From Actinomycetota bacterium (GTDB lineage: Bacteria; Actinomycetota; Thermoleophilia; RBG-16-64-13), in assembly GCA_012523095.1 (NCBI GenBank), contig JAAYJE010000033.1, forward strand, positions 10,612-74,611: 64,000 bases of DNA, read 5' to 3'. Below the pieces are notes generated by a model, which saw nothing but the letters and a program-made list of their open reading frames with translations, searched no databases and was not told the DNA's origin. Numbering within the stretch: the stretch's first letter is position 1; the number at the start of each line of letters is the position of its first letter. This document shows positions 1 through 47,560 of the stretch, piece by piece. The position numbers and the translations under genes are program-made.

Positions 1-498
1 GCCGCCCACGAAGAAGGCGTCATCGACGCCATCGTGCGTCTAGTGGCCGCCTTCCGTGACAAGGACCTACCGGTGCTCTACAGCGTCACCTACACGGCGC
101 CCGACGTGAGATGGCCGGCCTACGGAGGTTTCTGGCAGACATCCCGGCAGATCACTGTGAACCGGATGGGGACCTGGGACGTGGAGGTCATCGAAGAACT
201 GAAGCCGGATCCTGAAGAGCCCATTTTCTGCAACTGGCCTTTCAACCCCTTCGAGGGGACGGGGTTGCACGAGCATATGCAGGAGGACGGCGTGGATACC
301 GTGGTGCTCACCGGTGTCGCCACGGGCATGTCGGTGGGGACGGCCGCCTGGGCATTGGCCGAGCGTTTCTACAACCTCATCATCCCCTCCAACGCGATCA
401 CCGACGCCGACAGTGAAGTCCACCGGGTGGTGCTCGGACAGGTGTTGCCGGCCATCGCGCTCATCACGACCACGGAGGACGTGATCAAGCATTTGTAG
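1..498 (+). CDS. isochorismatase-like (cysteine hydrolase fold) protein, 5' end outside window
   Basis: Frame 1 is open from base 1. The translation (...VDTVVLTGVATGMSVGTAAWALAERFY...) has the isochorismatase-family core and is a paralogue of the 950..1570 product. The position of the nucleophilic Cys reads Ser. Confidence 0.75.
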   Translation, partial: AAHEEGVIDAIVRLVAAFRDKDLPVLYSVTYTAPDVRWPAYGGFWQTSRQITVNRMGTWDVEVIEELKPDPEEPIFCNWPFNPFEGTGLHEHMQEDGVDTVVLTGVATGMSVGTAAWALAERFYNLIIPSNAITDADSEVHRVVLGQVLPAIALITTTEDVIKHL

Positions 499-5273: not shown

Positions 5274-5392
5274 TGTCTACCCCCGCGCGGCTACATGTCA
5301 GGACTCGTACTCATTTCTCCGGCGATCGTCCCGGACCTTCCGGGCTCCACGGATCTATAAGGCCTGGGTGCCGCGCGCCTCGAGCTACCGAG

Positions 5393-5827
5393 CTAGAAGG
5401 CCCCCAACTGGCAGTGCTTCACTCTGATGCCCAGAGCTTCGCAGGCACACGAGACCGTAAGCTTCTCGCTCCCGAGTTCTTCCGCGATCTTCCAACAGGA
5501 GGCGCAGGGGATCTGCCCGTTGGTCGCGTATCGCCCCAACCGGTCGCGAAGGTCTTCGGAGATGTCCTCAGCCGGCCTGACGGTCCTCTTCTCGGGCTCG
5601 TGACCGAAAAGGCCCATCTGGCACTTGATGATGCGGTATTCCAACAGATCGGCGGCTTTGCCCACCTCGGAGGGCGCGATCTTGGAGACCGCCGCTATCT
5701 CGTGAGCGGCGGCGCAGGCTACGCGCTCGTTCTCAGCCACTTTCTCAAGGGCGGCGGCGATGGCAGGGTCGCAGACCGTTCCGGCGGGATGTTTGGCACC
5801 GTAGTGTCCAGCGTCTTCATGCGTCAT
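5393..5827 (-). CDS. hypothetical protein with an internal tandem duplication ending in C-Q-(M/L)-G-x-F
   Basis: 144-aa ORF. Its start overlaps the stop of the upstream NTPase gene (ATGA). It contains two ~40-aa repeats (ACAAAHEIA...IIKCQMGLF and CASCWKIAEE...VKHCQLGAF). Confidence 0.6.
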   Translation of the reverse strand: MTHEDAGHYGAKHPAGTVCDPAIAAALEKVAENERVACAAAHEIAAVSKIAPSEVGKAADLLEYRIIKCQMGLFGHEPEKRTVRPAEDISEDLRDRLGRYATNGQIPCASCWKIAEELGSEKLTVSCACEALGIRVKHCQLGAF

Positions 5828-6492
5828 GGGTTCTCCTCCTGTAACGGCCCGTCAAAGGGCTCTGGCTCCAGTATCTCATGGGCCGTGGCCCTTGCCCCGA
5901 CCAGGGGCATCATCGTCATAATGGCGGTTGGTAGAGCATCCCGCCCCTCAATGGTGACCTCGAAGAGGGAGATGGGGACCGGGCCCAGTTGCTTCTTCAG
6001 TTCCTCAAGGAGCTTGGGCCGACAGACTACCAAGGCGACGCTGTAATCACGGCAGCGCAGCACTTCGAGCGCCGACGCCCAACCGCGGCCGCCCAGCAAC
6101 TCCAAGGGCCCGAGTTCATCGACCACCAGGAGGTCGCAGGGGGTCGCTTGGGAGAGGGTTGCATCTGCCCAGGCAAAGGCTTCCGCGTTGAAATCCCAGC
6201 CTGGGGTGAGCGGATCGGTGGTGACCATCCCGCGGGTCTCGGCAGGCGGAACAGCGCGCCTCCCTCTCCTCGCACATTCCCCGTACTCAGAACCCAACGG
6301 CCGGCTCTCTCCGGATCGCAGGTCCACGACCCGGCGCGAGGCGCTCCACTCGCCGTCATCGATCCGCTCGGTCAGGAGGCCGGCCACAACGAAGTCGTTC
6401 TTGGCTACCGTCCGGGCCACCCGGGCGCAGACCGTGCTCTTACCCGAGCCTTTCTCGCCCGTGACCACGTAGATCAGACCCTCAGGCGGCAC
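5824..6492 (-). CDS. P-loop NTPase (THEP1/DUF2478-like)
   Basis: Walker A VTGEKGSGKST near the N-terminus and Walker B LLVVDELG. Confidence 0.7.
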   Translation of the reverse strand: MPPEGLIYVVTGEKGSGKSTVCARVARTVAKNDFVVAGLLTERIDDGEWSASRRVVDLRSGESRPLGSEYGECARRGRRAVPPAETRGMVTTDPLTPGWDFNAEAFAWADATLSQATPCDLLVVDELGPLELLGGRGWASALEVLRCRDYSVALVVCRPKLLEELKKQLGPVPISLFEVTIEGRDALPTAIMTMMPLVGARATAHEILEPEPFDGPLQEENP

Positions 6493-6505
6493 ACCCGCCC
6501 CCGCT

Positions 6506-7027
6506 CTATTTGAACTCTAGGGAGACGACGTCCTTGACCCAGGCTTTGCTCTCGAGGCCGGGGATCACGACACTCAGCCTGCCGTCGTCACCGATGGCGA
6601 GGATGGCGTCGGCACTCCCCTTGATGTCGCTAATGGGCACCTCTCCCATGTAGGCGTCGGCGGCGGTCATGACGAGGGTCGTCGCTTCGCTTTGGACCCC
6701 GAGAGTAGTGAAGAGCTCGCTTAGGAGCACGCCCCGGTAATCGGTCATCCCCAGTTTAGGATGGTCCACGGTGATCTCGGCCACCGTCATCGTCTCAAGC
6801 AGTGCGGCCGTGAGTGTGGTGGGATTGTCGACCATGCCCTTAACGGCGGCGTTGCCGCTGGTTCCCACCGAGGAAGAGGCAGGATCCGTAGCCATAGTGG
6901 TGGTCGTCTCGGAAGCGACGGCCGTAGCAGACGTCTCAGATTCGCCGCAGGCTGCGACGAACAACAGCGCGCCGGTCAACAGGAGCGCTGCGATCAGCGC
7001 GAGACGGCGAGAGTAGCGGGTGGTCAT
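6506..7027 (-). CDS. lipoprotein with a molybdopterin-oxidoreductase-like (YedY-fold-like) substrate domain
   Basis: Lipobox FVAAC, a Thr/Ser linker, then YRGVLLSELF...TLVMTAADAYMGEVPISDI...SVVIPGLESKAWVKDVVSLEF, which resembles the short oxidoreductase molybdopterin-binding-like domain proteins found next to ABC importers. Confidence 0.5.
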   Translation of the reverse strand: MTTRYSRRLALIAALLLTGALLFVAACGESETSATAVASETTTTMATDPASSSVGTSGNAAVKGMVDNPTTLTAALLETMTVAEITVDHPKLGMTDYRGVLLSELFTTLGVQSEATTLVMTAADAYMGEVPISDIKGSADAILAIGDDGRLSVVIPGLESKAWVKDVVSLEFK

Positions 7028-7054
7028 TAGCGGACCCTCCTCGTTTCTTTGACT

Positions 7055-8221
7055 CTAGTTGGTTGGAACAGCATGCTTCATGAGTTCCTGCATCTGTTTG
7101 TCGCTCAGGTCGAAGTGATAGAAGAGCTCGTAGAACTCTTTGACCTTGGCCTGTATGTCGAAATCGTATAATTCTGGGTAGAGTAGGTTGCCCACCCAAG
7201 GGATGCCGAGGATGCGTCCGATGGAGTAGGGGCGGTCGACCCAGTCGAAGGGACCGTGCGGGATCTCATACACCCGGTCGTCCTTCACGGCTTGGATGGT
7301 CGCCCAGTCTGCACCGGTGGTGATCTGCTCGTGGACGTTGGTTTCTCCGGCGGGGTCGCTGGCCACGAAGATCACCTGTGGATTCCACGCGATCACCTGT
7401 TCCAGCGACACCGGCGACATCCCATAACCCTGTTGAAGCTCCACGTTGGCGACGTTCCTCGCGCCCACCAGGCTGAAAACCTCTGTATGGTTGGAGCCCT
7501 CGGGGTCGGTGTGCAACCCCTTGCCTCCCTCGGCGTAGTAGACACTTATCCGGTCGGCCTCTGTCAGCTCGGCCGTGTTATCGCGAGCCTGACGGAGGAC
7601 CTCGTCGGAATAGACGGCCAGCTCCTCTGCCTGTTCTTGCTCGCCGAGTATCTGTCCGATGAACCTGTATGCGTCGCCTGTCTTGGCAAGGGTGGAGTCG
7701 ACGACGACCACAGGCACACCCAGCAGGCCTTGGATGCGCTCGGCATCGGACACGGTCGCTTCGTCCACGTCGCCCAAGCTGATGACTACATCGGGAGCCA
7801 GCTTGATGATCTCCTCCACGTTGCCGGTGGTGTTCTTACCGAACCACCCTCCAAGGCCGACCATGGTGCGATGCTCGGCCGGTATGTACTCTTGCTCCTG
7901 CTCCGTGGGCGTGATGTTCCAGCCGATCAGAAGCTCAGGGGCCAGGGTGTAGATCAGATTGGTGGCGGTCGGACCGGACCCGAAAACCCGTCCGACGCGT
8001 GCGGGGACCGTCACCTGCCGGCCGGCATGGTCGGTGATGGTGACCGCCTCCTCGCCGCCCGACGTGGAGGTGGTATCGACGGGATCCTGCTTGGCGCCGC
8101 AGGCTACCGCCGACAGCGACAACAGGGCTGATACTAAGATAAGGACCAAGAAGACCGCCGTCGACCGGGCCGCAGACTGCGTTACGGACTGTACTCCGGA
8201 CTGTAGTGTGGACTGTACCAC
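7055..8221 (-). CDS. ABC transporter periplasmic/lipoprotein substrate-binding protein, FecB/BtuF (type 8 PBP) family
   Basis: GTG at 8221 precedes a signal peptide with lipobox (LSAVAC). The body matches iron-siderophore/cobalamin binding proteins (RVFGSGPTATNLIYTLAPELLIGW..., PDVVISLG, WNPQVIFV). The longer 498-aa ORF overlaps the ATPase gene and was trimmed. Confidence 0.8.
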   Translation of the reverse strand: MVQSTLQSGVQSVTQSAARSTAVFLVLILVSALLSLSAVACGAKQDPVDTTSTSGGEEAVTITDHAGRQVTVPARVGRVFGSGPTATNLIYTLAPELLIGWNITPTEQEQEYIPAEHRTMVGLGGWFGKNTTGNVEEIIKLAPDVVISLGDVDEATVSDAERIQGLLGVPVVVVDSTLAKTGDAYRFIGQILGEQEQAEELAVYSDEVLRQARDNTAELTEADRISVYYAEGGKGLHTDPEGSNHTEVFSLVGARNVANVELQQGYGMSPVSLEQVIAWNPQVIFVASDPAGETNVHEQITTGADWATIQAVKDDRVYEIPHGPFDWVDRPYSIGRILGIPWVGNLLYPELYDFDIQAKVKEFYELFYHFDLSDKQMQELMKHAVPTN

Positions 8222-9162: not shown

Positions 9163-10256
9163 GTCCAGGCCCTTCGGGTCCGTGCCAGGAGGAAGATGAA
9201 GAAGGGCGCTCCGATGAGCGCGGTGAGGATGCCCAGAGGTATCTCCAGGGCCCCGGCCAATCGAGCGATGTCGTCTATCAGCAGTAGGTAGACCCCTCCG
9301 ATGACCGCCGAGACGGGCAGGAGTCTGCCGTAGTCGGGGCCGACCAGGCCTCGAGCCACGTGCGGGATTATGAGCCCCACCCAGCCTACGATACCGGCGA
9401 CCGCCACAGCGGAAGCGGTCATCAACGTGCAGGCGCCTATGACGATGATGCGCATCTTGGTCGTCTCCGAACCCATGGCCTGCGCCTCTTCTTCTCCGAA
9501 TGAGAGGGGGTTGAGGTGCCACCTGACTACCAAGAGGGCGATGCCGCCGACAAGCATGGGGCCGATGAGGATGAGGATGTCCTGCCGATTGACGGCGGCC
9601 AAGCTGCCCATCAACCAGAAGGTTATGGTGGGGAGCTTGTCGGACGGGTCGGCGAGTACTTTGAGTATCGAGATAAGCGACGTGAAGACGGTGCCCACCA
9701 GAATACCCGTCAACACCAAGAACAGGGTGGGGTCGCCTCGGCGGATGCGGCCGGCCAACATGTACGTGGCAAGGACGGCGACCAGGCCGAAACCAAGGGC
9801 AAGAAACTGCGTGACTATGACGCTCTTGGAGAGCATGATGCCGAGCGCCGCGCCGAAACCGGCTCCGGCTGAGGCGCCAAGAATATCGGATGAGACCAAG
9901 GGGTTGCGAAACATGCCTTGATAGGCGGCGCCCGACAAGGCCAGTCCGGCGCCGATGAGCATGGCCGCGAAGATGCGGGGGAGGCGCACATTGAGGATGA
10001 CGGTGGCGACTTCCGGTGACACTGTGGCGTCGGTGAGCCCGAGTTTGGCCCCAAACAAGGTGAACAACTCTCCGAGCGACACCGGGTAACGGCCCAGCGT
10101 CACCGACAGTAGGAACACGAGGATAGGCACCATGATGAGACCCGGGACCCGGAGCCGTACGGCGATGACCTTGAGTCTGGAGCCGAGGCTCAGTGCCGGG
10201 GTCTCGGCTCCTTTCGCTTCCACTGTCTCCGTGATACCGTCGGCCATGCGCGTCAA
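9159..10256 (-). CDS. FecCD/BtuC-family ABC permease
   Basis: 365-aa polytopic membrane protein with typical FecCD motifs (LPRIFAAMLIGAGLALSGAAYQGMFRNPLVSSDILG...). Confidence 0.9.
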   Translation of the reverse strand: MTRMADGITETVEAKGAETPALSLGSRLKVIAVRLRVPGLIMVPILVFLLSVTLGRYPVSLGELFTLFGAKLGLTDATVSPEVATVILNVRLPRIFAAMLIGAGLALSGAAYQGMFRNPLVSSDILGASAGAGFGAALGIMLSKSVIVTQFLALGFGLVAVLATYMLAGRIRRGDPTLFLVLTGILVGTVFTSLISILKVLADPSDKLPTITFWLMGSLAAVNRQDILILIGPMLVGGIALLVVRWHLNPLSFGEEEAQAMGSETTKMRIIVIGACTLMTASAVAVAGIVGWVGLIIPHVARGLVGPDYGRLLPVSAVIGGVYLLLIDDIARLAGALEIPLGILTALIGAPFFIFLLARTRRAWT

Positions 10257-11131
10257 TCCGTCGTCTCAGGAGCAGTGGTGAAGGGCTCCGCGATGGGGTG
10301 GCCCACTGCACTCGGCCCGGCGTCGGGCTGCGGGATGACACGCGCGGCTGCGTCCTGCATGGCGCTCAAGTCCGCCCGCACATCGTCTCGGGTGATCTGG
10401 ACCTTCCGTCCCCCGTTGCTGAACGGACCTTTCAGTCCGCCCTCCTGGCAGTATCTCCACGCCTCGTCGCGGTCGATCACCACCATCCCTGCAAGGACGT
10501 CCACCCCTTGGTCGAACCACCACGGGGCCAGAGGGACGCTGGGTCCCATCAGCACTACGGTAGCCTGCGCTGAGAGCTCGATCAATCTGGGAAGGGTCTT
10601 GTTGGTCACCGTCACTCCGGTGATGAAGACGTAATCCTGCTCGGGGAGCACATATTCCGCAGCGAAGTCCGGCAGGTCGTCACCGTGGGGGTCGCGCTCC
10701 AGTACGGTCAACTCGCACCGGGATGCGGCCGCCTCCACATCTGGGAAATGCCCGATGACGGCCACTTTCTTGCCCGAGACGTGCTCCAGCATGTCGGTCA
10801 GAGCGCCGGCTCCGTGGACGGCGTCGAGCGGCCCCTTCAGCCATCCCCTCACCCGTTCGGGCGAATTGTAGTGGGAATTGACCGCCGCCATCCCAAGTGA
10901 GGCCTCGTGAAGATCCCAGCTTCTCAAGTAGGCGGCCAGTTCGCTCAGCCTGCGCCCCGAGTAGGGAGGGCGAAGGGCGCTCCGTTGGGGATCGCCCCGG
11001 CAGGTCATGGCGATGCCGAGGCCTTCGCTGTCGACTACGGTCCAGCTACGACCCACCAAGCAGGCTTTCACAACCGCATCACTCGGGATCTCTTCCAGGA
11101 GTCGATCGTAGATGACCCAGCTGTCGGTCAA
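10253..11131 (-). CDS. DUF4213/DUF364 (putative heavy-metal/cofactor chelation, Rossmann-like) protein
   Basis: 292-aa ORF with a TTG start, overlapping the permease start. Motifs match DUF364 proteins that commonly lead such ABC operons (GKKVAVIGHFP..., DYVFITGVTVTNKTLPRLI). Confidence 0.7.
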   Translation of the reverse strand: MTDSWVIYDRLLEEIPSDAVVKACLVGRSWTVVDSEGLGIAMTCRGDPQRSALRPPYSGRRLSELAAYLRSWDLHEASLGMAAVNSHYNSPERVRGWLKGPLDAVHGAGALTDMLEHVSGKKVAVIGHFPDVEAAASRCELTVLERDPHGDDLPDFAAEYVLPEQDYVFITGVTVTNKTLPRLIELSAQATVVLMGPSVPLAPWWFDQGVDVLAGMVVIDRDEAWRYCQEGGLKGPFSNGGRKVQITRDDVRADLSAMQDAAARVIPQPDAGPSAVGHPIAEPFTTAPETTD

Positions 11132-12223: not shown

Positions 12224-12520
12224 ATGCCTGTCAACCTCTCTATCAAGAACGTTCCCGACGAGGTCGTCCGCGGGCTCCGCAACCGAGCGGCCAACAACCA
12301 ACGCTCCTTACAGCAGGAGTTGCTGGCCATACTGCGGCAGGCGGCCAAGGACCAGCCTGAGGTAAGCATCGACGGGCTGTTGGAGCAGGCCCAGAGGAAG
12401 AGGCCGGCTCTCGACGAGACGGCTTCAAAGGTGTTGGCCGCCCGAGACGCGGAGCATGAGAGAGTGGCTCGCCGCTTCGAGGACCTGTTGGACGGATCGG
12501 ACGAGGACGGCCGGGCTTAG
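12224..12520 (+). CDS. ribbon-helix-helix (Arc/FitA-like) antitoxin-type DNA-binding protein
   Basis: N-terminus MPVNLSIKNVPDEVVRGLRNRAANNQRSLQQELLAIL is a typical RHH antitoxin beginning. GGAGGAG SD lies upstream. Confidence 0.65.
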   Translation: MPVNLSIKNVPDEVVRGLRNRAANNQRSLQQELLAILRQAAKDQPEVSIDGLLEQAQRKRPALDETASKVLAARDAEHERVARRFEDLLDGSDEDGRA

Positions 12521-12524
12521 CGAG

Positions 12525-12905
12525 TCAGCGCAACTGCTTCTCGCGGCGCCTCGCCTGGCACAGTCCACAACCTTGGCGGCAGCTTCTGTTGGGCATCGCG
12601 GTGTCCAGTCCGTAATGCATGCGAAGGCGGCGTTCCTCGGTTTTGGACAGAGGCCGACCCGGTTCCATGACCGGTCCGCCGTCCACATATGTCTTGGGAT
12701 AGGGGAGGACCAGGCGTTCCGTCGAGCAAAGGAACTGCTCCGCGGGCGCGAGGATCGTTCCGGCCGCTGTCTCCACCAGCAGCCAGGTGACGCCGAACTT
12801 CTTGCGGGGATAGGCGAGGCCTGTGATTGTGCCGATCCTCTTGCCGGCCGCGTCGAACAGTTCTCTGCCTCGCCATCCGGCTGCTTCGGAGATCAGGTCG
12901 TTCAT
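12525..12905 (-). CDS. PRC-barrel-like domain protein
   Basis: ATG at 12905 with AAAGGAAC upstream. GRELFDAAGKRIGTITGLAY...WLLVETAAGTILAPAEQ resembles PRC-barrel proteins. The longer N-terminal extension in the track is Arg-rich and unlikely to be real. Confidence 0.5.
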   Translation of the reverse strand: MNDLISEAAGWRGRELFDAAGKRIGTITGLAYPRKKFGVTWLLVETAAGTILAPAEQFLCSTERLVLPYPKTYVDGGPVMEPGRPLSKTEERRLRMHYGLDTAMPNRSCRQGCGLCQARRREKQLR

Positions 12906-13110
12906 GATGTTCCTTTCTACAACAGTCTCCTCCTCTCTACCGCATGTAGGGCCGATAGAAACACGATACGGCTGACAGGGTCGCAGGCGCCGGGCGCGAG
13001 CAAGGGTGCTGCGCAGGCTCGGCACTATGGTGTTCGCCACGCGCCCCGGCAGGTGGTACGGTTAGCTCTACACCGATGATACTCAGTCAGTCCGAGTAGG
13101 AGACAGTCAC

Positions 13111-14880
13111 ATGGCGCAACAGTCTTCTAATCCCCTTGGCACCGTTCTCGACCCCAGGGGTCAACCGACCAACATCGTGGAGCCCAAGCCGTTGGCGCCG
13201 CGCCTGGATACGCTTGAAGGAAAGACCATACACCTGATCGACATAGGGTTCGGCGGGGGATGGGAGTTCCTCGAAGAGACGGTCGCTTGGTTCGCCCGCC
13301 ACATGCCCAGTGTGAAGACCGTCCTCAAGCGCAAAGACGGCATCATGTTCGTAGACGCGCCTCAGATGTGGGAGGACGCCAAGGCTAACGCCGATGCGGT
13401 TGTTCTTGGTGTAGGCGGCTGAGACGGCTGTGCGGCGAGTGTCGCCGCCTATTGTAGGATACTAGAGTCTGAGTACGGCGTTCCGACCGCGCCCCTTTCG
13501 AGCGCCCGCTTCGCCGACTTCCTGGGCCTGGACGCGCGGAACCACGGCATGAACCTTCGGTTCCACTACGCCCCGTATCCGTTGGTGGGAAGGCCGCGCG
13601 ACGTCCTTCGTAGGTATGTCGAGGGCAACGATCCGGTCACGGGCAGGCCCCTGATGCAGGAGATCATCGATGCGCTCACCAAGCCACTCACCCCAGAGGA
13701 GAGCGATCCTCAGCCGTCCCGCGGCGCTCCGCGCCCGAGGCTGCTGAAGTCGGACAGAGAGGAGAACCTCCATCAACTGTTCCTAGAAAACGGGTGGACG
13801 GACGGTGCTCCCATCGTGCTGCCCACCGAGGAGCGCGTGGCCCGGATGCTGACCGGCACGGCTGCCGATCCCAACGAGGTCGTAGGCCGAATGACGGTGA
13901 CCGTCCATGAGGAGAAGCTCGAGTACACGGTGGAGAAAGTGGCCGTGAATGCCGTGATGGCCGGCGCCGGACCGGAGCATCTGCCCGTGATCCTCGCGAT
14001 CGCGGCCGGCGGTGAAGCGTCGATGCCGAGTTCCACCACCTCTTTCGGCAGGATGGCCGTCGTGAACGGGCCCATCCGTGATGAGATAGGCATGAACTCG
14101 GGCCTGGGCGCCCTCAGCCCCTTCAACCACGCCAACACCGTCATAGGCCGGGCCTGGACGCTCATGACCATCAACCTGGGCGATGCACGTCTCAGCGACA
14201 CCTTCCTGGCTTCGACCGGCAACAACATGAACTACAACAACATGACGTTCGCCGAGAATGAGGAGAGGAGCGTGTGGGATCCGTTCCATGTCCGCAAGGG
14301 CTTCAAGAAGAAGGACAGCACGGTCAGCCTCTTCCAAGGCTGGAGCGCCATAAACAGCATGGGCGCCGCCGGCTGTTGCCGCCCGGCGCATGAAGAGATG
14401 CTGATCATCATGCAGGCCTTCCCCTGCCTGAGGGGGGCACTGACATTGGTCATGGACCCGCTGGTGGCCAAGCACCTCAAAGAACAGGGGTTCGAGCATC
14501 CCGGCAGGTTGTCCCAGTACCTGTCCGAGAACTTCAAGATGACCGCCGGCCAGTTCTGGGGTTCGGACGTCGTCTACTCCTTGGTGGAGCCTACTGCGCG
14601 AATGGGGGTGGAGCCGCTGGCATCCTTCCTGAGAGCGTCTAAGGATGAGCTCATCGCCCCATATGCCGACCCCGAAGCCATCAATGCGGTGGTCGTTGGC
14701 GGCGAAACCCAGGCGCTCTGGCTGACCACGGACATGTGGCATTCGCAGACCGTGTCGGTGGATAGGTGGCGTCCGAAGAGCGGTGTCTACCAAGAGGACG
14801 AGCAGGTAAGACGCCGCCGAGAGGCGCGCCAGAAGCGGCACTCGGCGGCACTGACCCTAAGCGGCTACGACCTAGTGTGA
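13111..14880 (+). CDS. candidate selenoprotein: UGSC-like redox domain (GG-U-DG-C) fused to a ~440-aa domain of unknown function, read through the UGA at 13420..13422
   Basis: ORFs 13111..13422 and 13549..14880 share a frame, and the 42 codons between them contain no stop. The only interruption is a TGA inside ...VVLGVGG-TGA-DGCAAS..., giving a U-x-x-C motif. The ATG at 13549 has no SD. A GC hairpin follows the TGA. Confidence 0.55.
13420..13449 (+). promoter_or_regulatory. candidate bacterial SECIS element (UGA plus downstream hairpin)
   Basis: A 7-bp stem (GCGGCGA/UCGCCGC, 13432-13438 and 13442-13448) starts 9 nt after the UGA. Its GUG apical loop lies 19 nt from the U of UGA. Confidence 0.4.
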
Positions 14881-16097
14881 TGGTGGCGGGCGGGAGGGCC
14901 GGCGGCGTCGCCGCCGGCCCGGAGGCCAACCCCAGTCTGCGGCGCCGGCTGCCGCTCTATCCGTGCCAGTTCCTGTGCGCGATGGCCATCGTCTCGCTGG
15001 GGCCCCTCCTCGACCCGATGATGCGCGACCTCGGTATCTCTCTTGCCCGTGGAGGGCTTATCAGCGCCGGGCTCTTTCTCGGCAATGTGAGCGGCATCGT
15101 AGTGCTCAACACGGCCATGGCGAGGGTGCCGGCGAAGTGGGTGCTGGCAGGGGGCGCGGCCCTCCAGGGCGCCGCGCTCATCCTCGCGGCCGCGGTGGCT
15201 TGGGGCCTCGGGTCCTTGCTGGTCATCTATCTACTGGTCGGCTTCGGCGGAGCCCTGCTGAACGCCACCTGCTGGATGTGGATCTCGACGCACGTGAAAG
15301 AGAACAGGGCCGCCGCCGCCCTGCACATGATCCTGTTCTTCGCTCTCGCGATGATAAGCGTGCCTCTGATCATTGGGTTGGCGTTGGACGCCGGAGCCAC
15401 ATGGCGTTGGGTGCTCGTCGTCGAGGGAGGACTGGCCTGGTTGGTCGCACTGAGTCTGGCGTTGGCGCCTCTTGCGGACATCGCGGGGCGACGGAACGTG
15501 CGTCTCTCGCACTTCCGCGAGGTGGTTAGGTTCGATTCCAAGCTCATTGTAGGGATGATGGGAGCGGGTTTCTTCTACGTGGGAGCAGAGATGACCCTGA
15601 ATGTCTGGCTCCCGAAGTTTCAGATCGACACTTTCGGTGCCGGCGGCGCCTGGGCCAGCTTCGCGGTGACTCTCTTCTGGGTGGGTCTGATCGTGGGCCG
15701 GCTGATCGTGATGGGGCTCACCCGGCGCTTCTCTCCCTCAAGGCTGTTGCTTGTCTGCACCTGCGCCATGGCGGTCTTCACCGTGGCGATCGCTCTCGCT
15801 CCGTCGCAAGTCGTGTCTCTGGTCTTCGCCGTCGGTGCGGGACTGGGAGCGTCGGCCTCCTACGGCATCATCGGGAGCTACGCGGGACGCTTTCCTGGGT
15901 GGCAGTCGGCGGTGGCCTCCTCGCTCTTCATCCTGTCGGGCGGGGTAGGCAGCATAACGTTCCCCTACCTCATGGGCCCACTGGCTCACTCAGCCGGGTT
16001 TAGGATGGCCCTTGCCATGATTGCAGTGCCCGCGGTCGTCTGCGCGTTGTTCTCCCTCCTCATCCGTGCCCGCTCTGGAGAAGCAAGGGCGTCGTGA
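14880..16097 (+). CDS. MFS transporter
   Basis: ATG at 14880 overlaps the upstream stop (TGATG). About 12 predicted TM segments of MFS-like character. The upstream part of the 443-aa track ORF overlaps the previous gene and was trimmed. Confidence 0.8.
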   Translation: MVAGGRAGGVAAGPEANPSLRRRLPLYPCQFLCAMAIVSLGPLLDPMMRDLGISLARGGLISAGLFLGNVSGIVVLNTAMARVPAKWVLAGGAALQGAALILAAAVAWGLGSLLVIYLLVGFGGALLNATCWMWISTHVKENRAAAALHMILFFALAMISVPLIIGLALDAGATWRWVLVVEGGLAWLVALSLALAPLADIAGRRNVRLSHFREVVRFDSKLIVGMMGAGFFYVGAEMTLNVWLPKFQIDTFGAGGAWASFAVTLFWVGLIVGRLIVMGLTRRFSPSRLLLVCTCAMAVFTVAIALAPSQVVSLVFAVGAGLGASASYGIIGSYAGRFPGWQSAVASSLFILSGGVGSITFPYLMGPLAHSAGFRMALAMIAVPAVVCALFSLLIRARSGEARAS

Positions 16098-16153: not shown

Positions 16154-17125
16154 TCACTCTTCCACGCAGATACGAGCCCGGATTATATTGACAATAGTCA
16201 GGAGCGCGAGCAGGCAGATGAGGATCACCACGATGGCGAACACCACGAAGGCGAGCACGCGGTAGAAGAGTAGACCGGTCTGCGCGTGCATCATCGTGCT
16301 GGCTATGACGAGGGCGGCCACAGGGAACGAGTAGGCCCACCAAGACAGGTGGAAGCGCGCTTTGCGCAGCATGCCCACCTGCACCAATAGGAAGAGGAAG
16401 ATGAAGAGCCCGTAGTAGTAGAGGATGTTGGTGAAGGCGTCCAGCCCGCCACTCAGTTTCACGTAGGCAATGGCGCCGACCACGGGCGGGGCAAGCAGGA
16501 TGAAGAAAGTAGGGAGCAGCTTCTCGGGTAATGGATGATGGAAGAAGATGCGGTAGAAGAAGAGGGTCTGCAGAATCACCCAGAACACCACGCCGATGCT
16601 GAAGAAGAGCCATGAGATCTCGTCAGGAGCATGCTCCACTCCGGCTACCGGCACAAGGATGTTGCCCACCACAGGGATGAACCACACCGGGCACATGTGC
16701 TTGATCTCGAACTTCTGCTGCTGCACCCAGATGCTGAGGATTATCAGGGTGAGCATGAGATGCAGCACCGCGCCTATGACCCAGAAGACCAGCGAAGCCG
16801 TCTTACTGACAGGGAGAAAGGCAACGGCGACAAGCAGGAAGTTTATGGAGAAGGCTGGGAAGAAGCTCAACCCGACCGGGTCGTTGAACTCCTGTATACA
16901 GGCCTGTCGATGACGCACAAGTTTGAGAGCATAGACCAACGTGATGATGAGGAACACCGCCAAGGTCAAGGCGAGCAGGACCGTGCTGGATACGTTGGTG
17001 GTCCCTAGCAGGCCCTCGATCTTCTGGGTGGCGATGGCCAAGCCGTTCAGGCCCATGACGATCGAGAAGAATGAAACAGGGAAGTTGCCGAGTCTCGACG
17101 CGGGGGCCTTCGCTTCTTGGGTCAT
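16154..17125 (-). CDS. TehA/SLAC1-family (tellurite-resistance/dicarboxylate transporter type) anion channel
   Basis: 323-aa polytopic protein. N-terminal FPVSFFSIVMGLNGLA and overall architecture are typical of the TDT/TehA family. Confidence 0.8.
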   Translation of the reverse strand: MTQEAKAPASRLGNFPVSFFSIVMGLNGLAIATQKIEGLLGTTNVSSTVLLALTLAVFLIITLVYALKLVRHRQACIQEFNDPVGLSFFPAFSINFLLVAVAFLPVSKTASLVFWVIGAVLHLMLTLIILSIWVQQQKFEIKHMCPVWFIPVVGNILVPVAGVEHAPDEISWLFFSIGVVFWVILQTLFFYRIFFHHPLPEKLLPTFFILLAPPVVGAIAYVKLSGGLDAFTNILYYYGLFIFLFLLVQVGMLRKARFHLSWWAYSFPVAALVIASTMMHAQTGLLFYRVLAFVVFAIVVILICLLALLTIVNIIRARICVEE

Positions 17126-18536: not shown

Positions 18537-19280
18537 TCAGCTGCCGTAGGGGCAGTAGCGCTCGTACCCAAACAGGGCGGCAGCGCCGGCGATGGTGACC
18601 CCGTAGAAGACGGTGGGCTTGGCGCTCAGAAGACCGTCAAGGGTGTTGTTGGCGAGAGTGGTGCCCGTGACCAGTAAGACATCCGCCCAATCGAGGATCT
18701 CCTTCGTGTTTTCCACTCCCTCGATAAGCACTCCCGCGCGTTCTTGTCCTATGTTGTCCGGGTCCATGTCGGTCACGCGTACTGAGAACTCCGGCGCCAA
18801 GGCCGCTATCATCGCGGGCTGGAATCCGATAATCGCCAAGCGGGGCGACCCGAAGCGATCACGGATATATCGGGCGATGCCGTCGGCGCACTGTCTGGGT
18901 CCGTCGTCACGACAGTGGGCGGTATTCTCTGTGAGTCCCAGATGGGCCAGGAGGGCGTTGGCGGTCGCCACCACGAGGGCGCGATCGAAGTCTGTCAGAA
19001 GGGGCCTGCCGAGTATCTCCCCGATGGTGCCTTCGAAATGACCCGGTTCAGAGGTGAAGGCGTGACCTCGACAGTCGCGGAAACGTGCCTCCATCATGAA
19101 CTCCTTGCCCTTCAAGATAGGGAAATCCGTGCGCTCCGGCCGGCCGATGGCCTCATCGGGTGTGAGCGGACGGGCGGAAACCACCTCAACGGCCTCGGCG
19201 GTAAGCGCATGCAGGCGGGCCAACTCCAGTGCGCGGTGTCGGAAGCGCTCCAGCACCGTCTCGTCGTGGGACTCATCCAC
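18537..19280 (-). CDS. DUF364-like Rossmann-fold protein (second copy in the window)
   Basis: 247-aa ORF. The segment RLAIIGFQP...ADVLLVTGTTLANNTLDGLL parallels KVAVIGHFP...DYVFITGVTVTNKTLPRLI in the 10253..11131 product. Confidence 0.6.
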   Translation of the reverse strand: MDESHDETVLERFRHRALELARLHALTAEAVEVVSARPLTPDEAIGRPERTDFPILKGKEFMMEARFRDCRGHAFTSEPGHFEGTIGEILGRPLLTDFDRALVVATANALLAHLGLTENTAHCRDDGPRQCADGIARYIRDRFGSPRLAIIGFQPAMIAALAPEFSVRVTDMDPDNIGQERAGVLIEGVENTKEILDWADVLLVTGTTLANNTLDGLLSAKPTVFYGVTIAGAAALFGYERYCPYGS

Positions 19281-19482
19281 GGCACACCTCCCATAAGCTG
19301 CATACTGTTCTCGGGGTGTCTCTTAAGGTGTCGTCTGCATTCGCAAAGAGCCTACCATCGATAAGCGTCGACGAGGTGTCGGCCCCAAGTCGCGGTGAGG
19401 TAGCATAGACCGAGAGGAGTTGAGGGCGCCGCCGGCGAAAGGCTGCCCGGTGGGTTCCCGACGAGACTTGAGGAGGAAGACG

Positions 19483-19854
19483 GTGAAGATCAAGCGGCGC
19501 GAGGACGTGCCTTCGGTGGCGATGGCGGGATGCCCAGGCGTAGGCAAGCAGGTGGTCCTGGGGCCTGCCGACGGGTCGGAAGAGGTCGCACTGCGTTACT
19601 TCACCGTGGATGCGGGGGCGGCCACTCCGCACCATACCCATGACTTCCCGCATCTCGTGAGGGTAGAGGCCGGCCGGGGAGTGGCGGTGGACGGCGAGGG
19701 GAACGAGGCGCCGATCTCCGCCGGTGACTATGTGTACGTGGCGTCGAACGAGATGCATACCTTCAAGAACGCCGGCAGGACCCCGATAGAGTTCATCTGC
19801 ATCGTGCCGGGGCGCGGCGAGCCGCCGACGGCCGGTGGGCGGCGAACAGGGTGA
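19483..19854 (+). CDS. cupin domain protein
   Basis: GTG at 19483, 6 nt after AGGAGG. Cupin motifs HHTHDFPHLVRVEAGRG and GDYVYVASNEMHTFKN. Confidence 0.8.
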   Translation: MKIKRREDVPSVAMAGCPGVGKQVVLGPADGSEEVALRYFTVDAGAATPHHTHDFPHLVRVEAGRGVAVDGEGNEAPISAGDYVYVASNEMHTFKNAGRTPIEFICIVPGRGEPPTAGGRRTG

Positions 19855-19864
19855 GGTGGGCCAC

Positions 19865-21094
19865 ATGAATGACGAGCGTCTGGAGTCTCTGATGACCGAT
19901 CTCCCGGCAGCCGTCCGGAGAGCCAAGAGTGAGGGCGTCAAAGTGGTTGGCTACCTACCTGGGCCGTACGTGCCCGAGGAGCTCATCTACGCATCTGGGG
20001 CCCTGCCCGTATGTTTGGCATACGGTGGTGACGCTCAGGTAGCGGACTACGCTCTGTCTCTGCTTCCTCCCATCATCTGCCCGTTCGCGCGCGCCCAGGT
20101 GGGCGAGATGCTGCTCAAGAACAGGCCGGTCTATGACGCGATCGACATGGTGGTGGTCCCAAGCACATGCCAACACTACAGGATGGTCGGTGACGTGTGG
20201 GAACACCAAGAGTGGACCGACATCTTCAAGCTGGGGGTGCCTTACGATCCCAGAGAAGAGGTGTCGATGGTTTACTTCCGTGACCGTCTGTCCGACCTGT
20301 GGGAAAGGCTGGAGAACCTCACCGGCAAGAAGATCACCGACACATCGCTCAAGGAGGCGATCGGCGTCTACGACCGCTTGAGGGAGGCCCTTCGCAATAT
20401 CAGTCTGCTGCGTCGAAATCTGTCGCCTGGAGTGAGCGGCTTGGAGTTCATGAAGCTCAACCACGCCTCTTTGGTCGGTGATCCCCTGGCCATGGCCGAG
20501 GCCCTCGAGGTGTTCCACGGTGAACGTGTGGCCGCCATGCCCGACGAAACCGGCGTACAGGGAGCGGCCGGCGTACAGGGAGAGGCCTCCGGGCGGCAAG
20601 AGGCCGCCGCGCAGGGAGAGACCGACGACTCGCCCAGGCTGCTGCTCATCGGCCCCAATGTGGGTATCGGCGACTACGGGATCCTCGAGATGGTGGAGAG
20701 TGCCGGCGCGCATGTGGTCATGGAGGATGTCTTCGAAGGCGTAAGGGACTATTGGTGCACGGTGGGGCAGGATGGCGACCCGCTCGACGCCCTCGTCCAG
20801 GCCCATCTTGTGGACAGGGTGCCGGCGGCCTTCATGAGGTCGTCCACGGGTCCCAGGTTCGAGATGGTGTCCAAGATCATCCCCTGGTTCCAGGTGGAAG
20901 GGGTGATCTGGTACGAGCTGCTCTGCTGTGAGTTCTACGACCAAGAAGCGTACTTCTTCGAGAACAAGCTGCGGGAGCTGAATATCCCCATGCTGACGTT
21001 GGAATCGAACTACGACGATCTGCGCTCGGGATCTATTCGCACGAGACTTGAAGCGTTCCTCGAGGTAGTCCAGGGAGGGCCGGCCGATGCGTGA
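19865..21094 (+). CDS. 2-hydroxyacyl-CoA dehydratase / benzoyl-CoA reductase BcrB-BadD family subunit
   Basis: HGD-D family features (YVPEELIYASGALPV, ICPFARA, VVVPSTCQHY, GVIWYELLCCEFYD). ATG at 19865. Confidence 0.8.
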   Translation: MNDERLESLMTDLPAAVRRAKSEGVKVVGYLPGPYVPEELIYASGALPVCLAYGGDAQVADYALSLLPPIICPFARAQVGEMLLKNRPVYDAIDMVVVPSTCQHYRMVGDVWEHQEWTDIFKLGVPYDPREEVSMVYFRDRLSDLWERLENLTGKKITDTSLKEAIGVYDRLREALRNISLLRRNLSPGVSGLEFMKLNHASLVGDPLAMAEALEVFHGERVAAMPDETGVQGAAGVQGEASGRQEAAAQGETDDSPRLLLIGPNVGIGDYGILEMVESAGAHVVMEDVFEGVRDYWCTVGQDGDPLDALVQAHLVDRVPAAFMRSSTGPRFEMVSKIIPWFQVEGVIWYELLCCEFYDQEAYFFENKLRELNIPMLTLESNYDDLRSGSIRTRLEAFLEVVQGGPADA

Positions 21095-22505
21095 ACTGCT
21101 GGAGCTGTGCGGGTACGAGCCGCATGAGATCGACACCGAATCCGCGCGCGTGGGCAAGGCTCTGGGCATGGTGGGGATAACCGACGAAGACCTCCCGCGG
21201 GGCAAGGCGCGCATCAGCACATATTTCGACGTGGAGTTGTCCGGGGTGAGGAAGATCCTGGGCGCCCTCCTGAAGGACTTCACAGATGTGGTGCTGCTAC
21301 GGGAGCGCGAGGGGGTCAAAGTGGCGTTCTCGTTTATGGCGCCGGGTTGTCAGGTGTTGGGCTCCACCATGATGGCGAATCACGACAACGTGGCCTGGGT
21401 CAACGCCAACTACACGATCCTCATCGTGGTGAGCTCTATGTTCGACAAAGGCGCGGGCTTGATGGAAGCTGCGGAGAAGCTGTGGCTTCGGACCGGTGGG
21501 GTCGCCCATTGCGGTAATGTGAAGTGCGCCCTGGGGTCCTTGGCGTTGAACATGGTTCCCAAACCCGATCTGGCTGTGACGAGTGGGTTCCTCTGCGACA
21601 CTGGGGCCAAGACGATCGGGTTGATCCAGGACTGGTTCGGGATCCCGGGCTACTATGTAGACTGCTGGCAGGACCGTGAGCTCCGCGAGTTCCCTTATGC
21701 TAAGCGAACCACCAGCTTCTTCGCGAAGAGCCTGCGCACTCTCGCCGAAGATGTCGGCAAACAATTCGGCATCGAGATCACAGACGAGATGCTGTGGCGG
21801 AATCTGTCGGCCAGGAAGAAGTATTCGCAGGCCAAGGAGCGCGTGCATGAGCTGATGCGCCACAGCGATCCCATCCCCATGTCGTCCACCCATCTACACC
21901 TTCTTTTCGCGCTCGACGAGATTGTGCTCAAAGGTGACGAGACGGCGTCTCTCACTGTGGCGCTCGACACGCTTGCCGATGAGTTGCTGGAGCGGGTGAA
22001 CCAGGGCATCGGGGCGACGCCGAAAGGAGCGCCGCGCGTGCTCGGGGTGCTGCCCACCCATCATTCCGATCCCAGATGGGAGCACGTGGCCAACGAAGCG
22101 GGGATCGCTATCGCGGCTTCCGACTTCGAGTTCTCTTCCAGTCAAGGCCACGACGGAGCAGGCGTACTCGACCCGAACGATCCGTACGACCTGATAGGAC
22201 AGCACCTCCACTCAGCGGCCCAGCAGACCCTAGGGGGGAGACTGGCCATCGTCCTTGACGCGTGCAGGCGACTGCACCTTGACGGGGTGCTCAATCACTA
22301 TCACGTGGGCTGCCGGTATGTGGCGGGGGACGCGCTCCCTATAAAGAACGTGGTCACGAAGGAGCTGGGTATACCGGTGCTAACGTTCGAATGGGACAAC
22401 TTCGACCCCCGCAGCTACAATCACGAGCAGTACAGGGCCAATCTGGAGACGTTTCTGGGGATGATGGGGAAAGAAGCCAACCTGCCGGTCGGACCTCTCG
22501 CATAG
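21087..22505 (+). CDS. 2-hydroxyacyl-CoA dehydratase family subunit (second subunit)
   Basis: 472-aa ORF overlapping the previous stop by 8 nt. HGD-D-like regions include GFLCDTGAKT and LDGVLNHYHVGCRYVAGD. Confidence 0.75.
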   Translation: MRELLELCGYEPHEIDTESARVGKALGMVGITDEDLPRGKARISTYFDVELSGVRKILGALLKDFTDVVLLREREGVKVAFSFMAPGCQVLGSTMMANHDNVAWVNANYTILIVVSSMFDKGAGLMEAAEKLWLRTGGVAHCGNVKCALGSLALNMVPKPDLAVTSGFLCDTGAKTIGLIQDWFGIPGYYVDCWQDRELREFPYAKRTTSFFAKSLRTLAEDVGKQFGIEITDEMLWRNLSARKKYSQAKERVHELMRHSDPIPMSSTHLHLLFALDEIVLKGDETASLTVALDTLADELLERVNQGIGATPKGAPRVLGVLPTHHSDPRWEHVANEAGIAIAASDFEFSSSQGHDGAGVLDPNDPYDLIGQHLHSAAQQTLGGRLAIVLDACRRLHLDGVLNHYHVGCRYVAGDALPIKNVVTKELGIPVLTFEWDNFDPRSYNHEQYRANLETFLGMMGKEANLPVGPLA

Positions 22506-34699: not shown

Positions 34700-34701
34700 G
34701 T

Positions 34702-47557: not shown

Positions 47558-47560
47558 GTG

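Follow-up and report, generated by a model that had tools for sequence, protein, structure and literature searches.

A single 589-codon gene of the UGSC superfamily, interrupted by a UGA probably read as selenocysteine, in an Actinomycetota bacterium

Two open reading frames that are called separately in a 64-kb stretch of DNA from an Actinomycetota bacterium (the window, meaning the whole stretch analysed) appear to be a single gene of 589 codons, in which an in-frame UGA encodes selenocysteine (Sec). The gene belongs to the UGSC superfamily, as a member with two domains and Sec, and this Sec form is seen only as shortened calls. We consider it highly probable that the locus is best explained, as a whole, by one gene for a 589-residue selenoprotein with a SECIS, two domains and the reductase mechanism proposed below. 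The features of the locus are as follows.

13098..13102, + strand: Shine-Dalgarno sequence AGGAG, 8 nt 5' of the ATG at 13111 (direct sequence reading)
13111..14880, + strand: putative complete selenoprotein gene, with ATG at 13111, Sec codon 104 and terminal TGA at 14878-14880
13141..13623, + strand: UGSC-like redox domain, residues 11-171 (Pfam PF24696), predicted flavodoxin-like alpha/beta fold
13420..13422, + strand: UGA apparently read as Sec (U104), in the motif GVGG-U-DG-C, with C107 as resolving cysteine
13423..13548, + strand: 42 codons between the called ORFs, omitted by a caller that starts at ATG 13549; they encode helices 3 and 4 and strand 4 of the UGSC-like domain
13432..13448, + strand: SECIS-type hairpin, 7-bp stem (13432-13438 with 13442-13448) and GUG loop (13439-13441)
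13762..14772, + strand: C-terminal domain of unknown function, residues ~218-554 (~340 aa), with conserved motifs
14773..14877, + strand: basic, clade-specific tail of 35 aa, predicted to be helical (alignment; model helix 391-410)
14880..16097, + strand: neighbouring MFS transporter gene (Pfam MFS_1, 100 bits), TGATG overlap at 14878-14882

The segment 13111-14880 on the + strand is one open frame of 589 codons plus a stop, and the TGA at 13420-13422 is its sole interruption. A first-pass annotation had joined the ORFs at 13111..13422 (103 aa) and 13549..14880 (443 aa) across this codon, and direct inspection of the sequence confirmed the layout on which it relied: the ORFs lie in a common frame, the interrupting codon, number 104, is a TGA flanked as GVGG-TGA-DGC, no stop occurs in the next 42 codons, and AGGAG precedes 13111, with nothing comparable before the ATG at 13549. 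The predicted peptide around the Sec site reads ...AVVLGVGG-U-DGCAASVAAYCR.... That callers would split such a gene was also foreseen correctly, given that the best 120 database matches are shortened entries of 422-479 aa, named 'hypothetical protein', in every close relative listed. A promoter and terminator scan around the gene found nothing exceeding chance.

Comparison with relatives indicates that the codon is maintained as a UGA. It is TGA in 80/80 related genome loci, which span five phyla (Actinomycetota, Acidobacteriota, Desulfobacterota, Bacillota and Chloroflexota) and share the same two-domain architecture, and it is never TAA, TAG or a sense codon. In a wider, similarity-ranked set of 80 metagenome loci and 7 Cys-form loci, which covers several motif subclades, TGA was found in 70 and Cys in 14 of the 84 loci that could be classified. 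The stretch 13423-13548 evolves like the coding sequence that flanks it, with the same identities as that sequence at codon positions 1, 2 and 3 (0.78, 0.80 and 0.50) and stops in 0/80 loci. Uninterrupted homologues place the first Cys of a CxxC at the UGA position in 124 of 145 cases; the Cys homologues without interruption (545-570 aa) align over their full length, and the Pfam UGSC match runs across the TGA. The alignment of Cys with the UGA and the third-position bias had both been named beforehand as ways to check the proposal, and both favour it. A six-frame screen of the window for TGA codons in coding-like surroundings returned only the codon-104 site and two ordinary gene junctions. 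A second selenoprotein was considered at the uncalled gap 38400-39341 and rejected, the gap being ordinary sequence 5' of an aspartyl-tRNA synthetase.

In bacteria, the SECIS (e.g. that of E. coli fdhF, or the bSECISearch consensus) is a hairpin that lies in the coding sequence just 3' of the UGA and has a G and a U in its apical loop, some 16-20 nt past that codon. The hairpin here is as it was first described, with a 7-bp GC stem and a GUG loop: GCGGCGA-GTG-TCGCCGC starts 9 nt 3' of the TGA, and the loop begins 16 nt after it. It resembles the known elements in lying in coding sequence directly after the UGA, with the loop G and U ~17-18 nt downstream, and in the sister clades the loop is GGUC and one base bulges from the stem, likewise as in bacterial SECIS. 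Unlike the known elements, it has a stem of only 7 bp and a loop of only 3 nt, and it matches no Rfam SECIS model; neither a gathering scan of the window nor a permissive scan of 13380-13520 found a SECIS or a credible RNA family.

The hairpin is supported by its conservation and covariation and not by its energy: the stability of the region against shuffled sequences (z = -0.27) is not unusual for GC-rich coding sequence. RNAalifold, run on the 80-sequence alignment, did not recover the named hairpin and gave a spurious weak consensus instead, so the named structure was tested by pair counts. Among 79 distinct sequences 95.1% of the cells are paired, and both sides change in 4 of the 7 pairs, a covariation that is partly lineage-bound, the outermost pair being U-A or G-C by clade. 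None of 500 shuffles reached these values, and slid controls gave 24-66%. Some of the compensatory changes pair two synonymous third positions, as in GCG/GTC to GCC/GTG and in TCG/GCC to TCA/GCT. A GU-loop hairpin is present in 78/79 loci of the clade, with the loop G and U nearly invariant. In a sister clade encoding ...STCAPAV..., such a hairpin follows the codon in 40/40 distinct TGA forms as against 4/11 TGC forms that encode the same peptide, and the mean MFE is -15.6 in the former vs -9.1 kcal/mol in the latter (p = 4e-5). A like-designed hairpin, CGUGCA-GUG-UGCACG, is found in a short canonical UGSC gene at one related locus (L092). Taken together, these comparisons support the view that 13432-13448 is a SECIS-type element. 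With the invariant TGA, the codon-like stretch, the Sec/Cys pair, the covariation and the Sec-versus-Cys control, the original suggestion of a candidate selenoprotein with a SECIS-like hairpin holds. The signs by which a Sec UGA is recognised, namely a conserved in-frame UGA with coding constraint on both sides, Cys homologues and a downstream GU-loop hairpin, are all present.

The N-terminal region had been likened to the UGSC family, and this is right at the level of the domain. Residues 11-171 match Pfam PF24696 at 65.5 bits, above the cutoff of 25, over profile positions 1-160 of 172. The protein is nevertheless not a member of the equivalog NF041046, on which it scores 40.3 bits against a cutoff of 125; it carries the motif U-D-G-C and has 589 residues in two domains. 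Since the long Cys forms also stay below that cutoff, at only 40-86 bits, the long proteins are relatives, and not equivalogs, of NF041046. The fusion of this domain to a region of ~420 aa, also put forward at the outset, is real, although it is not peculiar to this gene: a very large family has it as its standard architecture.

The first UGSC selenoproteins were described from Hyphomonas neptunium and the Sargasso and GOS metagenomes (PMC1976440, PMC2398784), and the 2008 GOS paper already noted a UGSC fusion, with a partner labelled 'Unknown_1', and suggested a thioredoxin-like fold. The N-terminal 170 residues here pass the PF24696 threshold, as the UGSC proteins do. In both groups Sec is the first residue of a UxxC after the Gly-rich end of a strand, and most members have Sec, with Cys in a minority; the short canonical gene has a GUG-loop hairpin too and can adjoin a C-domain gene. 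The present protein differs in its motif (U-D-G-C instead of U-G-S-C), in its length (589 instead of about 150-190 residues, owing to the fused domain of ~340 residues) and in its predicted fold, which is flavodoxin-like.

The closest annotated counterparts are Cys forms of ~550 aa in RefSeq and UniProt, which NCBI already names 'UGSC family (seleno)protein' and which also appear as 'UGSC-like domain-containing protein'. Their hosts include Pseudonocardia, Microbacterium album, Agromyces, Roseomonas and Aquamicrobium. They are collinear with the protein studied here from end to end, 42-48% identical, and share the C-domain motifs and the position of the redox motif. They differ from it in having Cys (HCSTC) and being called intact, whereas the present gene has Sec and is split by callers. 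A TrxB-like gene usually lies directly downstream of them, unlike in this clade, which has none and often has a short-chain dehydrogenase (SDR). The extra C-terminal tail of 35 residues belongs to this clade only.

The position of the motif is consistent with a redox function. In a confident AF2 model of a Cys homologue (P0272; pLDDT 88.8), the CxxC (98-101) follows a strand (90-96) and opens a helix (101-115), so that the U/CxxC motif sits between strand 3 and helix 3; the redox pair U104-x-x-C107 stands where a helix begins. The N-terminal domain is predicted, from this model, to have a flavodoxin-like alpha/beta fold. Foldseek with the full-length model gave only weak matches in the PDB, of flavodoxin-like domains to the N-terminal domain, and no PrdB or GrdB structure was listed; PDB sequence searches with the N-terminal domain and with the family profile found no match. 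Profile-profile alignment (hhalign) to PrdB reads gave a probability of 83.5% (E = 8e-6) with U aligned to U, from four metagenomic reads over ~66 columns. GrdB of the glycine/sarcosine/betaine reductases and PrdB of D-proline reductase (PF07355) likewise have a UxxC at the end of a beta-strand, followed by a helix and an 'LE..G-I-P-T-V' strand. PF07355 (GRDB) gives no match at E <= 1, leaving only local profile-profile similarity around the Sec site over those ~66 columns, and the partner domain here is fused and has a different fold. Neither the window nor the neighbour clusters that recur around the related loci contain GrdA, GrdE or PrdA/pyruvoyl-proprotein partners.

The C-terminal domain carries the conserved motifs GWTDG.P..LPTE, VNAVMAG, VNGPIR, AN..IGRA, AENEE, VVGG and D.WR, with many invariant polar residues, no invariant cysteine and no recognisable cofactor motif. 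Pfam (at E <= 1) and NCBIfam gave no match to this domain in the present protein or in 10 divergent relatives. The source names of divergent relatives are all 'hypothetical protein'. Its sequence has no match in the PDB, and its model resembles no PDB fold (best E = 2.9, TM <= 0.16). A search with the domain retrieved 3865 representative clusters at E <= 1e-3. Most family members lack the 35-aa tail and end at ...D.WR. Tandem C-domain proteins without a fused UGSC domain occur; another protein taken for a 'standalone' C-domain (P0201) proved to be one more split Sec form.

The first-pass annotation also described translational coupling to an MFS transporter gene. The TGATG overlap is real in this genome, but the transporter is missing from the conserved neighbour clusters of the relatives. 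Other neighbours recur in these similarity-ranked samples: a gene for a TrxB-like flavoprotein carrying a CASC motif directly follows in 8 of the 12 CxxC loci with enough flank and is adjacent in about 11 U-STC loci, and an SDR accompanies the gene in 35-39 of the 81 loci of this clade, often immediately after it. No TrxB-like gene was found in the loci of this clade or in the window. Fusion of the two halves is standard, and they also occur as adjacent separate genes in L092, where a short U-G-S-C selenoprotein gene stands directly upstream of a separate C-domain gene. The ORF directly upstream of the gene (12456-13079 on the + strand or 12525-13040 on the - strand) belongs to no family on either strand. 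None of selA, selB, selD and tRNA-Sec was found in the 64-kb window or in the sequences flanking the 80 loci; Acidobacteriota are documented Sec users (PMC12013277).

Beyond what the comparisons support, namely a UGA decoded as Sec, a Sec/Cys redox pair, a fused two-domain build and recurrent partner genes, the most likely function that we infer is that of a Sec-dependent reductase acting on a small molecule. By analogy with known bacterial Sec decoding, the hairpin 9 nt after the codon-104 UGA would act as a SECIS during translation, recruiting SelB-GTP-Sec-tRNA(Sec), so that selenocysteine would be inserted and translation would not stop. The enzyme may then follow the same logic as selenoprotein B of the glycine and D-proline reductases. 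A small organic substrate would be bound by the C-terminal domain, the selenolate of U104 would attack it or pass electrons to it, the adduct would be resolved by C107 as a selenenylsulfide, and this would be re-reduced with electrons derived from NAD(P)H. Glycine reductase depends on an NAD(P)H-linked disulfide-reductase system, and a similar dependence is suggested here by the TrxB-like neighbours. In the sister clades, re-reduction would fall to the dedicated TrxB-like flavoprotein encoded next door and, in this clade, to a housekeeping thiol system, with the adjacent SDR probably catalysing a nearby step in the conversion of the substrate. A C-terminal domain with neither an invariant Cys nor a recognisable cofactor motif constrains neither the substrate nor the chemistry of this putative reductase.

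Three other explanations have to be weighed against this account. The locus could comprise two genes, a 103-aa protein ending at a true TGA and an independent 443-aa protein starting at ATG 13549, as the relic of a split gene. The callers give this model in every close relative listed (the same best 120 matches), and an ATG is kept at the +129 position, 13549 here, in 77/80 loci. In the other three it is replaced by ATC or CTG, and it has no Shine-Dalgarno sequence here. The 42 codons that the two-gene model leaves untranslated are under codon-like constraint and stop-free in 80/80 loci, and they encode the second half of one Pfam domain that is confidently modelled as one compact fold. A genuine stop would also have to be always TGA and never TAA or TAG, to coincide exactly with a Cys in uninterrupted homologues and to be followed by a hairpin specific to the TGA forms, and we regard two genes as very improbable. 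The TGA could, secondly, be a pseudogene lesion, a sequencing or assembly error, or a codon reassigned to Trp or Gly: a lone in-frame stop is the usual signature of an error or a pseudogene, and no Sec machinery was seen in the window. Here the codon is shared by 80 independent assemblies and 70 further loci (nearly all metagenome contigs), with purifying selection on either side of it; TGA ends other genes in the window, including this gene and at two gene junctions, and the residue in homologues is Cys rather than Trp or Gly. The 80-locus TGA, the coding constraint and the counts in the wider set effectively refute a lesion, an error or a reassignment, to which we give almost no weight.

The third explanation accepts a Sec-decoded gene and disputes its function. 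The UxxC domain could serve a non-redox C-terminal domain (a hydrolase, isomerase or lyase) as a thiol-disulfide or selenium-carrier module, for example by keeping it reduced or by delivering sulfur or selenium. About 15% of the uninterrupted members lack one or both Cys and keep all C-domain motifs, and some of these have signal peptides. Some family members lack both Cys, so that part of the family does something for which no redox pair is needed. The tandem proteins without a fused UGSC domain, the acidic and polar character of the C-domain invariants (TD, E, N, S, R, ENEE, H and D), as in many hydrolases and lyases, and the local nature of the PrdB similarity point the same way. Against this stand the co-located TrxB-like NAD(P)H flavoproteins and SDRs, which suggest a net flow of electrons, and the strong preference for Sec over Cys in environmental sequences, which is typical of catalytic nucleophiles and not of structural disulfides. 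In L092, moreover, the tandem C-domain gene still adjoins a UGSC selenoprotein. A carrier module is accordingly a serious competitor, though an unlikely one, and we retain the Sec-dependent reductase as the most likely function.

A broader proposal is offered only tentatively, and we lean somewhat against it as a whole. The C-terminal domain may be a new enzyme fold that, with the UGSC-type Sec domain, forms a third class of reductase beside the glycine and D-proline reductases, with a TrxB-like partner in some clades and a substrate imported by co-located Tct, TRAP, ABC or MFS transporters. It might also rank among the most common selenoenzymes still unannotated in Acidobacteriota, Gaiellales and Dehalococcoidia, since in soil and sediment metagenomes Sec forms, which appear there as shortened calls, are far more numerous than Cys forms.

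Since databases contain the gene only as shortened calls in the close relatives listed, protein catalogues lack its redox domain and Sec for Acidobacteriota, Gaiellales/Thermoleophilia, Dehalococcoidia and others. The context GV.G-TGA-xxC followed by a GU-loop hairpin offers a simple rule for the repair of split calls. Since 2005-2008, UGSC proteins have counted among the environmental selenoproteins of highest abundance. What is new here is a fixed partner domain of UGSC, fused or adjacent, a neighbour that recurs as a TrxB-like flavoprotein or an SDR, a connection with the PrdB/GrdB Sec site, and a set of cultured organisms with Cys forms (Microbacterium, Pseudonocardia, Roseomonas and Aquamicrobium) for knockout and enzyme assay. 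Together, these make the function of UGSC proteins experimentally approachable.

Window positions 13111-14880 constitute one gene of 589 codons with a conserved in-frame UGA, and the case for a selenoprotein, as called in the first-pass annotation, is solid, given the conserved TGA, the Sec/Cys pairs and a covarying hairpin. The gene spans two open reading frames:

13111-13422 (+), first ORF
13549-14880 (+), second ORF, in the same frame

The sole break is TGA 13420-13422 (codon 104), in the context ...AVVLGVGG-TGA-DGCAASVAAYCR..., and the 42 codons between it and ATG 13549 contain no stop. An AGGAG is found 8 nt 5' of ATG 13111, and at the 3' end the stop TGA shares bases with the start ATG of an MFS_1 transporter gene (14880-16097), reading TGATG. 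All these elements, together with a hairpin, GCGGCGA-GTG-TCGCCGC at 13432-13448, 9 nt 3' of the TGA, had been pointed out in the first-pass annotation and are present in the sequence. The coupling to the MFS gene stands as this overlap, but that gene is not conserved across the clade (the window gene plus 80 genome loci). When all six frames of the window were screened for TGA codons flanked by coding-like sequence, only TGA 13420-13422 and two ordinary gene junctions came up.

The best 120 database homologues are all 422-479 aa long and align to no more than the C-terminal 72-81% of the query; in each close relative listed the gene callers therefore start 3' of the TGA, a shortening that had been foreseen. 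Across the 80 loci, taken from bacterial assemblies with one genome per species (Gaiellales/Thermoleophilia, other Actinomycetota, Acidobacteriota, Desulfobacteraceae, Bacillota and Dehalococcoidia), the aligned codon is TGA in every case, and the N-terminal part extends upstream in frame with strongly conserved amino acids. In the 42 codons 3' of the TGA, identity at codon positions 1/2/3 is 0.78/0.80/0.50, the same pattern as in the 20 codons 5' of the TGA and in the 42 that follow ATG 13549. This stretch has no in-frame stop in any of the 80 loci, whereas the other two frames have stops in 17 and 46 loci, and ATG 13549 is replaced by ATC or CTG in 3/80. The first-pass annotation had considered that homologues might end at the TGA, with an independent downstream gene, or that the stretch might not be codon-like; on both points the conserved TGA, the codon-like stretch and the ATC/CTG variants favour read-through.

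Exhaustive searching across 1.84 billion representatives yielded 3865 related clusters, among them uninterrupted proteins of 545-570 aa that are collinear with the window protein over the whole length. In these, the TGA column corresponds to the first Cys of a CxxC (HCSTC, SCPGC, GCSTC, ACGSC), and the alignment of homologues proposed earlier places CxxC at this position in 124 of 145 uninterrupted full-length homologues. A profile search located Cys forms in cultured Pseudonocardia, Microbacterium album, Agromyces, Georgenia, Aquamicrobium, Pseudoruegeria and Roseomonas; they carry the names 'UGSC family (seleno)protein' (NCBI) and 'UGSC-like domain-containing protein' (UniProt). A wider set of 87 loci (80 found by scanning metagenomes with a diverse profile of the family, and 7 Cys-form loci) contained 70 TGA and 14 Cys loci among the 84 that were classifiable, a proportion that is not unbiased because the set was ranked by similarity to the query. 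Its TGA subclades are U-DGC, U-STC, U-SSC, U-GGC, U-PGC, U-HGC and U-AGC. Several Dehalococcoidia, Bacillota and Terriglobia loci have a second TGA-bearing paralogue no more than a few kb away from the main copy (TGA at L041:11701, L068:729, L074:8003, L075:9898, L059:9875, L051:8102 and L052:5114), mostly GVAG-U-PGC with a different hairpin and a GGUC loop; some genomes therefore carry at least two of these genes side by side. Three long relatives from outside the window (P0141, P0182, P0204) have an N-terminal signal/lipoprotein-like sequence and lack one or both redox Cys, which suggests exported, non-redox versions of the two-domain protein.

The loop G/U of a bacterial SECIS lies about 16-20 nt after the UGA, within the coding sequence, and the geometry of the window hairpin fits this. 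Over 79 distinct clade sequences, 95.1% of cells of the 7-bp hairpin are paired and both sides change in 4/7 pairs; none of 500 column shuffles equalled the real alignment in pairing, number of double changes or covariation score, and pairing fell to 24-66% when the 3' arm was shifted by 1-3 nt. Synonymous third-position double changes occur from GCG...GTC to GCC...GTG (six sequences, two phyla) and from TCG...GCC to TCA...GCT (three sequences), while one pair in L077 alters two amino acids jointly (A...A to P...G). The outermost pair switches by lineage, and the nearly invariant loop G and U fix the Ser codon as AGT. A sister clade, with Sec and Cys forms of near-identical peptide (STCAPAV...), served as control: a GU-loop hairpin is present in 40/40 distinct TGA forms versus 4/11 TGC forms, and the covarying hairpin is thus particular to TGA forms. 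Two hairpins are typical of the sister-clade TGA forms, CCGGC-GGUC-GCCG (one base bulged) and CCCNAC-GGUC-GUNGGG, and the subclades differ from each other by compensatory changes. Folding energy averages -15.6 kcal/mol for TGA and -9.1 kcal/mol for TGC forms (Mann-Whitney p = 4e-5, only indicative because the sequences are related). The hairpin region is no more stable than shuffled sequence, RNAalifold did not recover the hairpin unaided, and Rfam holds no matching model.

The resemblance to UGSC proteins holds at the domain level, Pfam PF24696 matching residues 11-171 of the read-through product across codon 104 (65.5 bits, cutoff 25), but not for the NCBIfam equivalog NF041046, where the window protein scores 40 bits and long Cys forms 40-86 bits against a cutoff of 125. 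The long proteins are therefore a subfamily apart from the UGSC selenoprotein of ~150 aa. An AlphaFold2 model of P0272, a Cys homologue 48% identical (pLDDT 88.8, pTM 0.88), alternates beta and alpha elements and places the U/CxxC redox pair at a strand-helix junction (CxxC 98-101, between strand 90-96 and helix 101-115). Foldseek with this model gave no match at E <= 1e-3; the weak matches, to the N-domain, were flavodoxin-like (WrbA, the flavodoxin domain of flavorubredoxin, B12-binding domains). The thioredoxin-like fold guessed for UGSC in 2008 is at odds with this model and these matches. The N-domain profile also aligned with four PrdB selenoprotein reads from GOS (83.5% probability, E = 8e-6, 66 columns), over the strand, U-x-x-C, helix and 'LE..GIPTV', with U opposite U.

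The C-domain (residues ~218-554), which the first-pass annotation could not place, has no Pfam/NCBIfam match in the window protein or in ten divergent relatives, and no PDB relative by sequence. Modelled alone (pLDDT 75.5), it gave no PDB fold match (best E = 2.9, TM <= 0.16). Its invariant polar motifs are TD, PT, E..A.N..MAG, S, VNGP.R, N..IGR, ENEE, W.P.H, DP, VVGG and D.WR, with no invariant Cys. Its association with the N-domain is fixed. One relative locus, L092, has a canonical short UGSC gene at 4217-4777 (TGA 4499-4501), called as two pieces of 94 and 84 aa; the ~186-aa product reads ...ITGIGD-U-G-S-C... and has its own stop and a GUG-loop hairpin. Directly 3' (5001-7130) lies a separate 709-aa protein of two tandem C-domains. 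To the earlier question of fused or adjacent halves, the answer is both: adjacent in some genomes, fused in others.

Other genes noted in the window are:

34-498 (+), 950-1570 (-) and 44457-45245 (-), three isochorismatase-family genes
10253-11131 and 18537-19280 (-), DUF364/DUF4213 'putative heavy-metal chelation' proteins, flanking the locus
12224-12520, FitA-like ribbon-helix-helix antitoxin gene, 5' of the selenoprotein gene
16154-17125 (-), TehA/SLAC1-type anion channel, just 3' of the MFS gene
19420-19854, cupin gene, 5' of the HGD-D pair
19835-22505 (+), two adjacent overlapping HGD-D genes (2-hydroxyglutaryl-CoA dehydratase D-component)
33266-35943 (-), GatB and an amidase (GatA-like) gene, directly 3' of the aspartyl-tRNA synthetase
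35955-38399 (-), aspartyl-tRNA synthetase, 814-aa ORF
46742-50089 (-), molybdopterin oxidoreductase, N-terminal domain like the pyrogallol hydroxytransferase large subunit (AhtL-like)

After the MFS gene the order is TehA/SLAC1-type channel, PadR regulator, DUF364 and the two HGD-D genes, near which no activator ATPase was seen. A FecCD permease gene and one for a periplasmic binding protein adjoin one of the DUF364/DUF4213 genes. The FitA-like gene is followed, directly 5' of the selenoprotein gene, by an ORF at 12456-13079 (+) or 12525-13040 (-) that has no family match on either strand; the two may form a toxin-antitoxin pair whose toxin is unrecognised. Behind the AhtL-like gene, without a change of frame, comes a 4Fe-4S/CarboxypepD_reg small subunit, and the two together resemble an enzyme of the pyrogallol-phloroglucinol transhydroxylase type; some Acidobacteriaceae loci (L027-L029) have tannase/feruloyl-esterase genes close to the selenoprotein gene. 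The 814-aa ORF has an extended C-terminal region, and its long N-terminal extension is probably spurious. With 2-oxoacid:ferredoxin oxidoreductase, the pyrogallol-transhydroxylase-like Mo enzyme, ETF/ETF-QO and corrinoid methyltransferase parts, the gene content looks like that of an anaerobe. No selA, selB or selD is found in the 64-kb window. Isochorismatase-like proteins have been predicted to be associated with the orphan SelD-based selenium trait (review, PMC9312934).

Among the relatives, oxidoreductases of the NAD(P)H type are recurrent neighbours. A short-chain dehydrogenase recurs in 35-39 of the 81 clade loci, often as the next gene downstream and as more than one copy; OYE-type flavoreductase, Zn-ADH, tannase and G6PD genes are sporadic. 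Cys forms of Microbacterium, Aquamicrobium, Roseomonas and Pseudonocardia are directly followed by a Pyr_redox_2/3 flavoprotein of ~300-325 aa with a TrxB-type CASC. This TrxB-like gene is directly downstream in 8/12 CxxC loci with enough flank, and adjacent on the same strand, upstream or downstream, in ~11 U-STC Sec loci; no relative of it occurs in the window or the 80 clade loci. Regulators of the GntR/FCD type and transporters of the Tct, TRAP or ABC type are also repeatedly found near Cys forms.

We propose that Sec would be inserted at the UGA in a SelB-dependent manner and that the C-domain would bind a small organic substrate, with U104 acting as nucleophile or electron donor and C107 resolving the selenenylsulfide. 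The pair could then be re-reduced by the TrxB-like partner in sister clades and by a general thiol system in the window clade. The selenoprotein B components of glycine and proline reductases follow the same logic, although the window protein, tested for membership of that family, falls outside it. Because ~15% of family members no longer carry the Cys pair, a live rival to this redox cycle is a C-domain with a non-reductase role, to which the UxxC domain would be accessory.

Catalogues have listed UGSC-containing selenoproteins since 2005-2008, describing them as abundant proteins of unknown function; the GOS paper mentions a 'UGSC/Unknown_1' fusion, and long Cys forms are already named in RefSeq. 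Within the literature searched, none of the papers covers long Sec forms, their SECIS, their partner genes or a PrdB link. The interest of the finding lies mainly in the truncated annotation of each close relative listed and in the uncharacterised partner C-domain, apparently without a structural representative.
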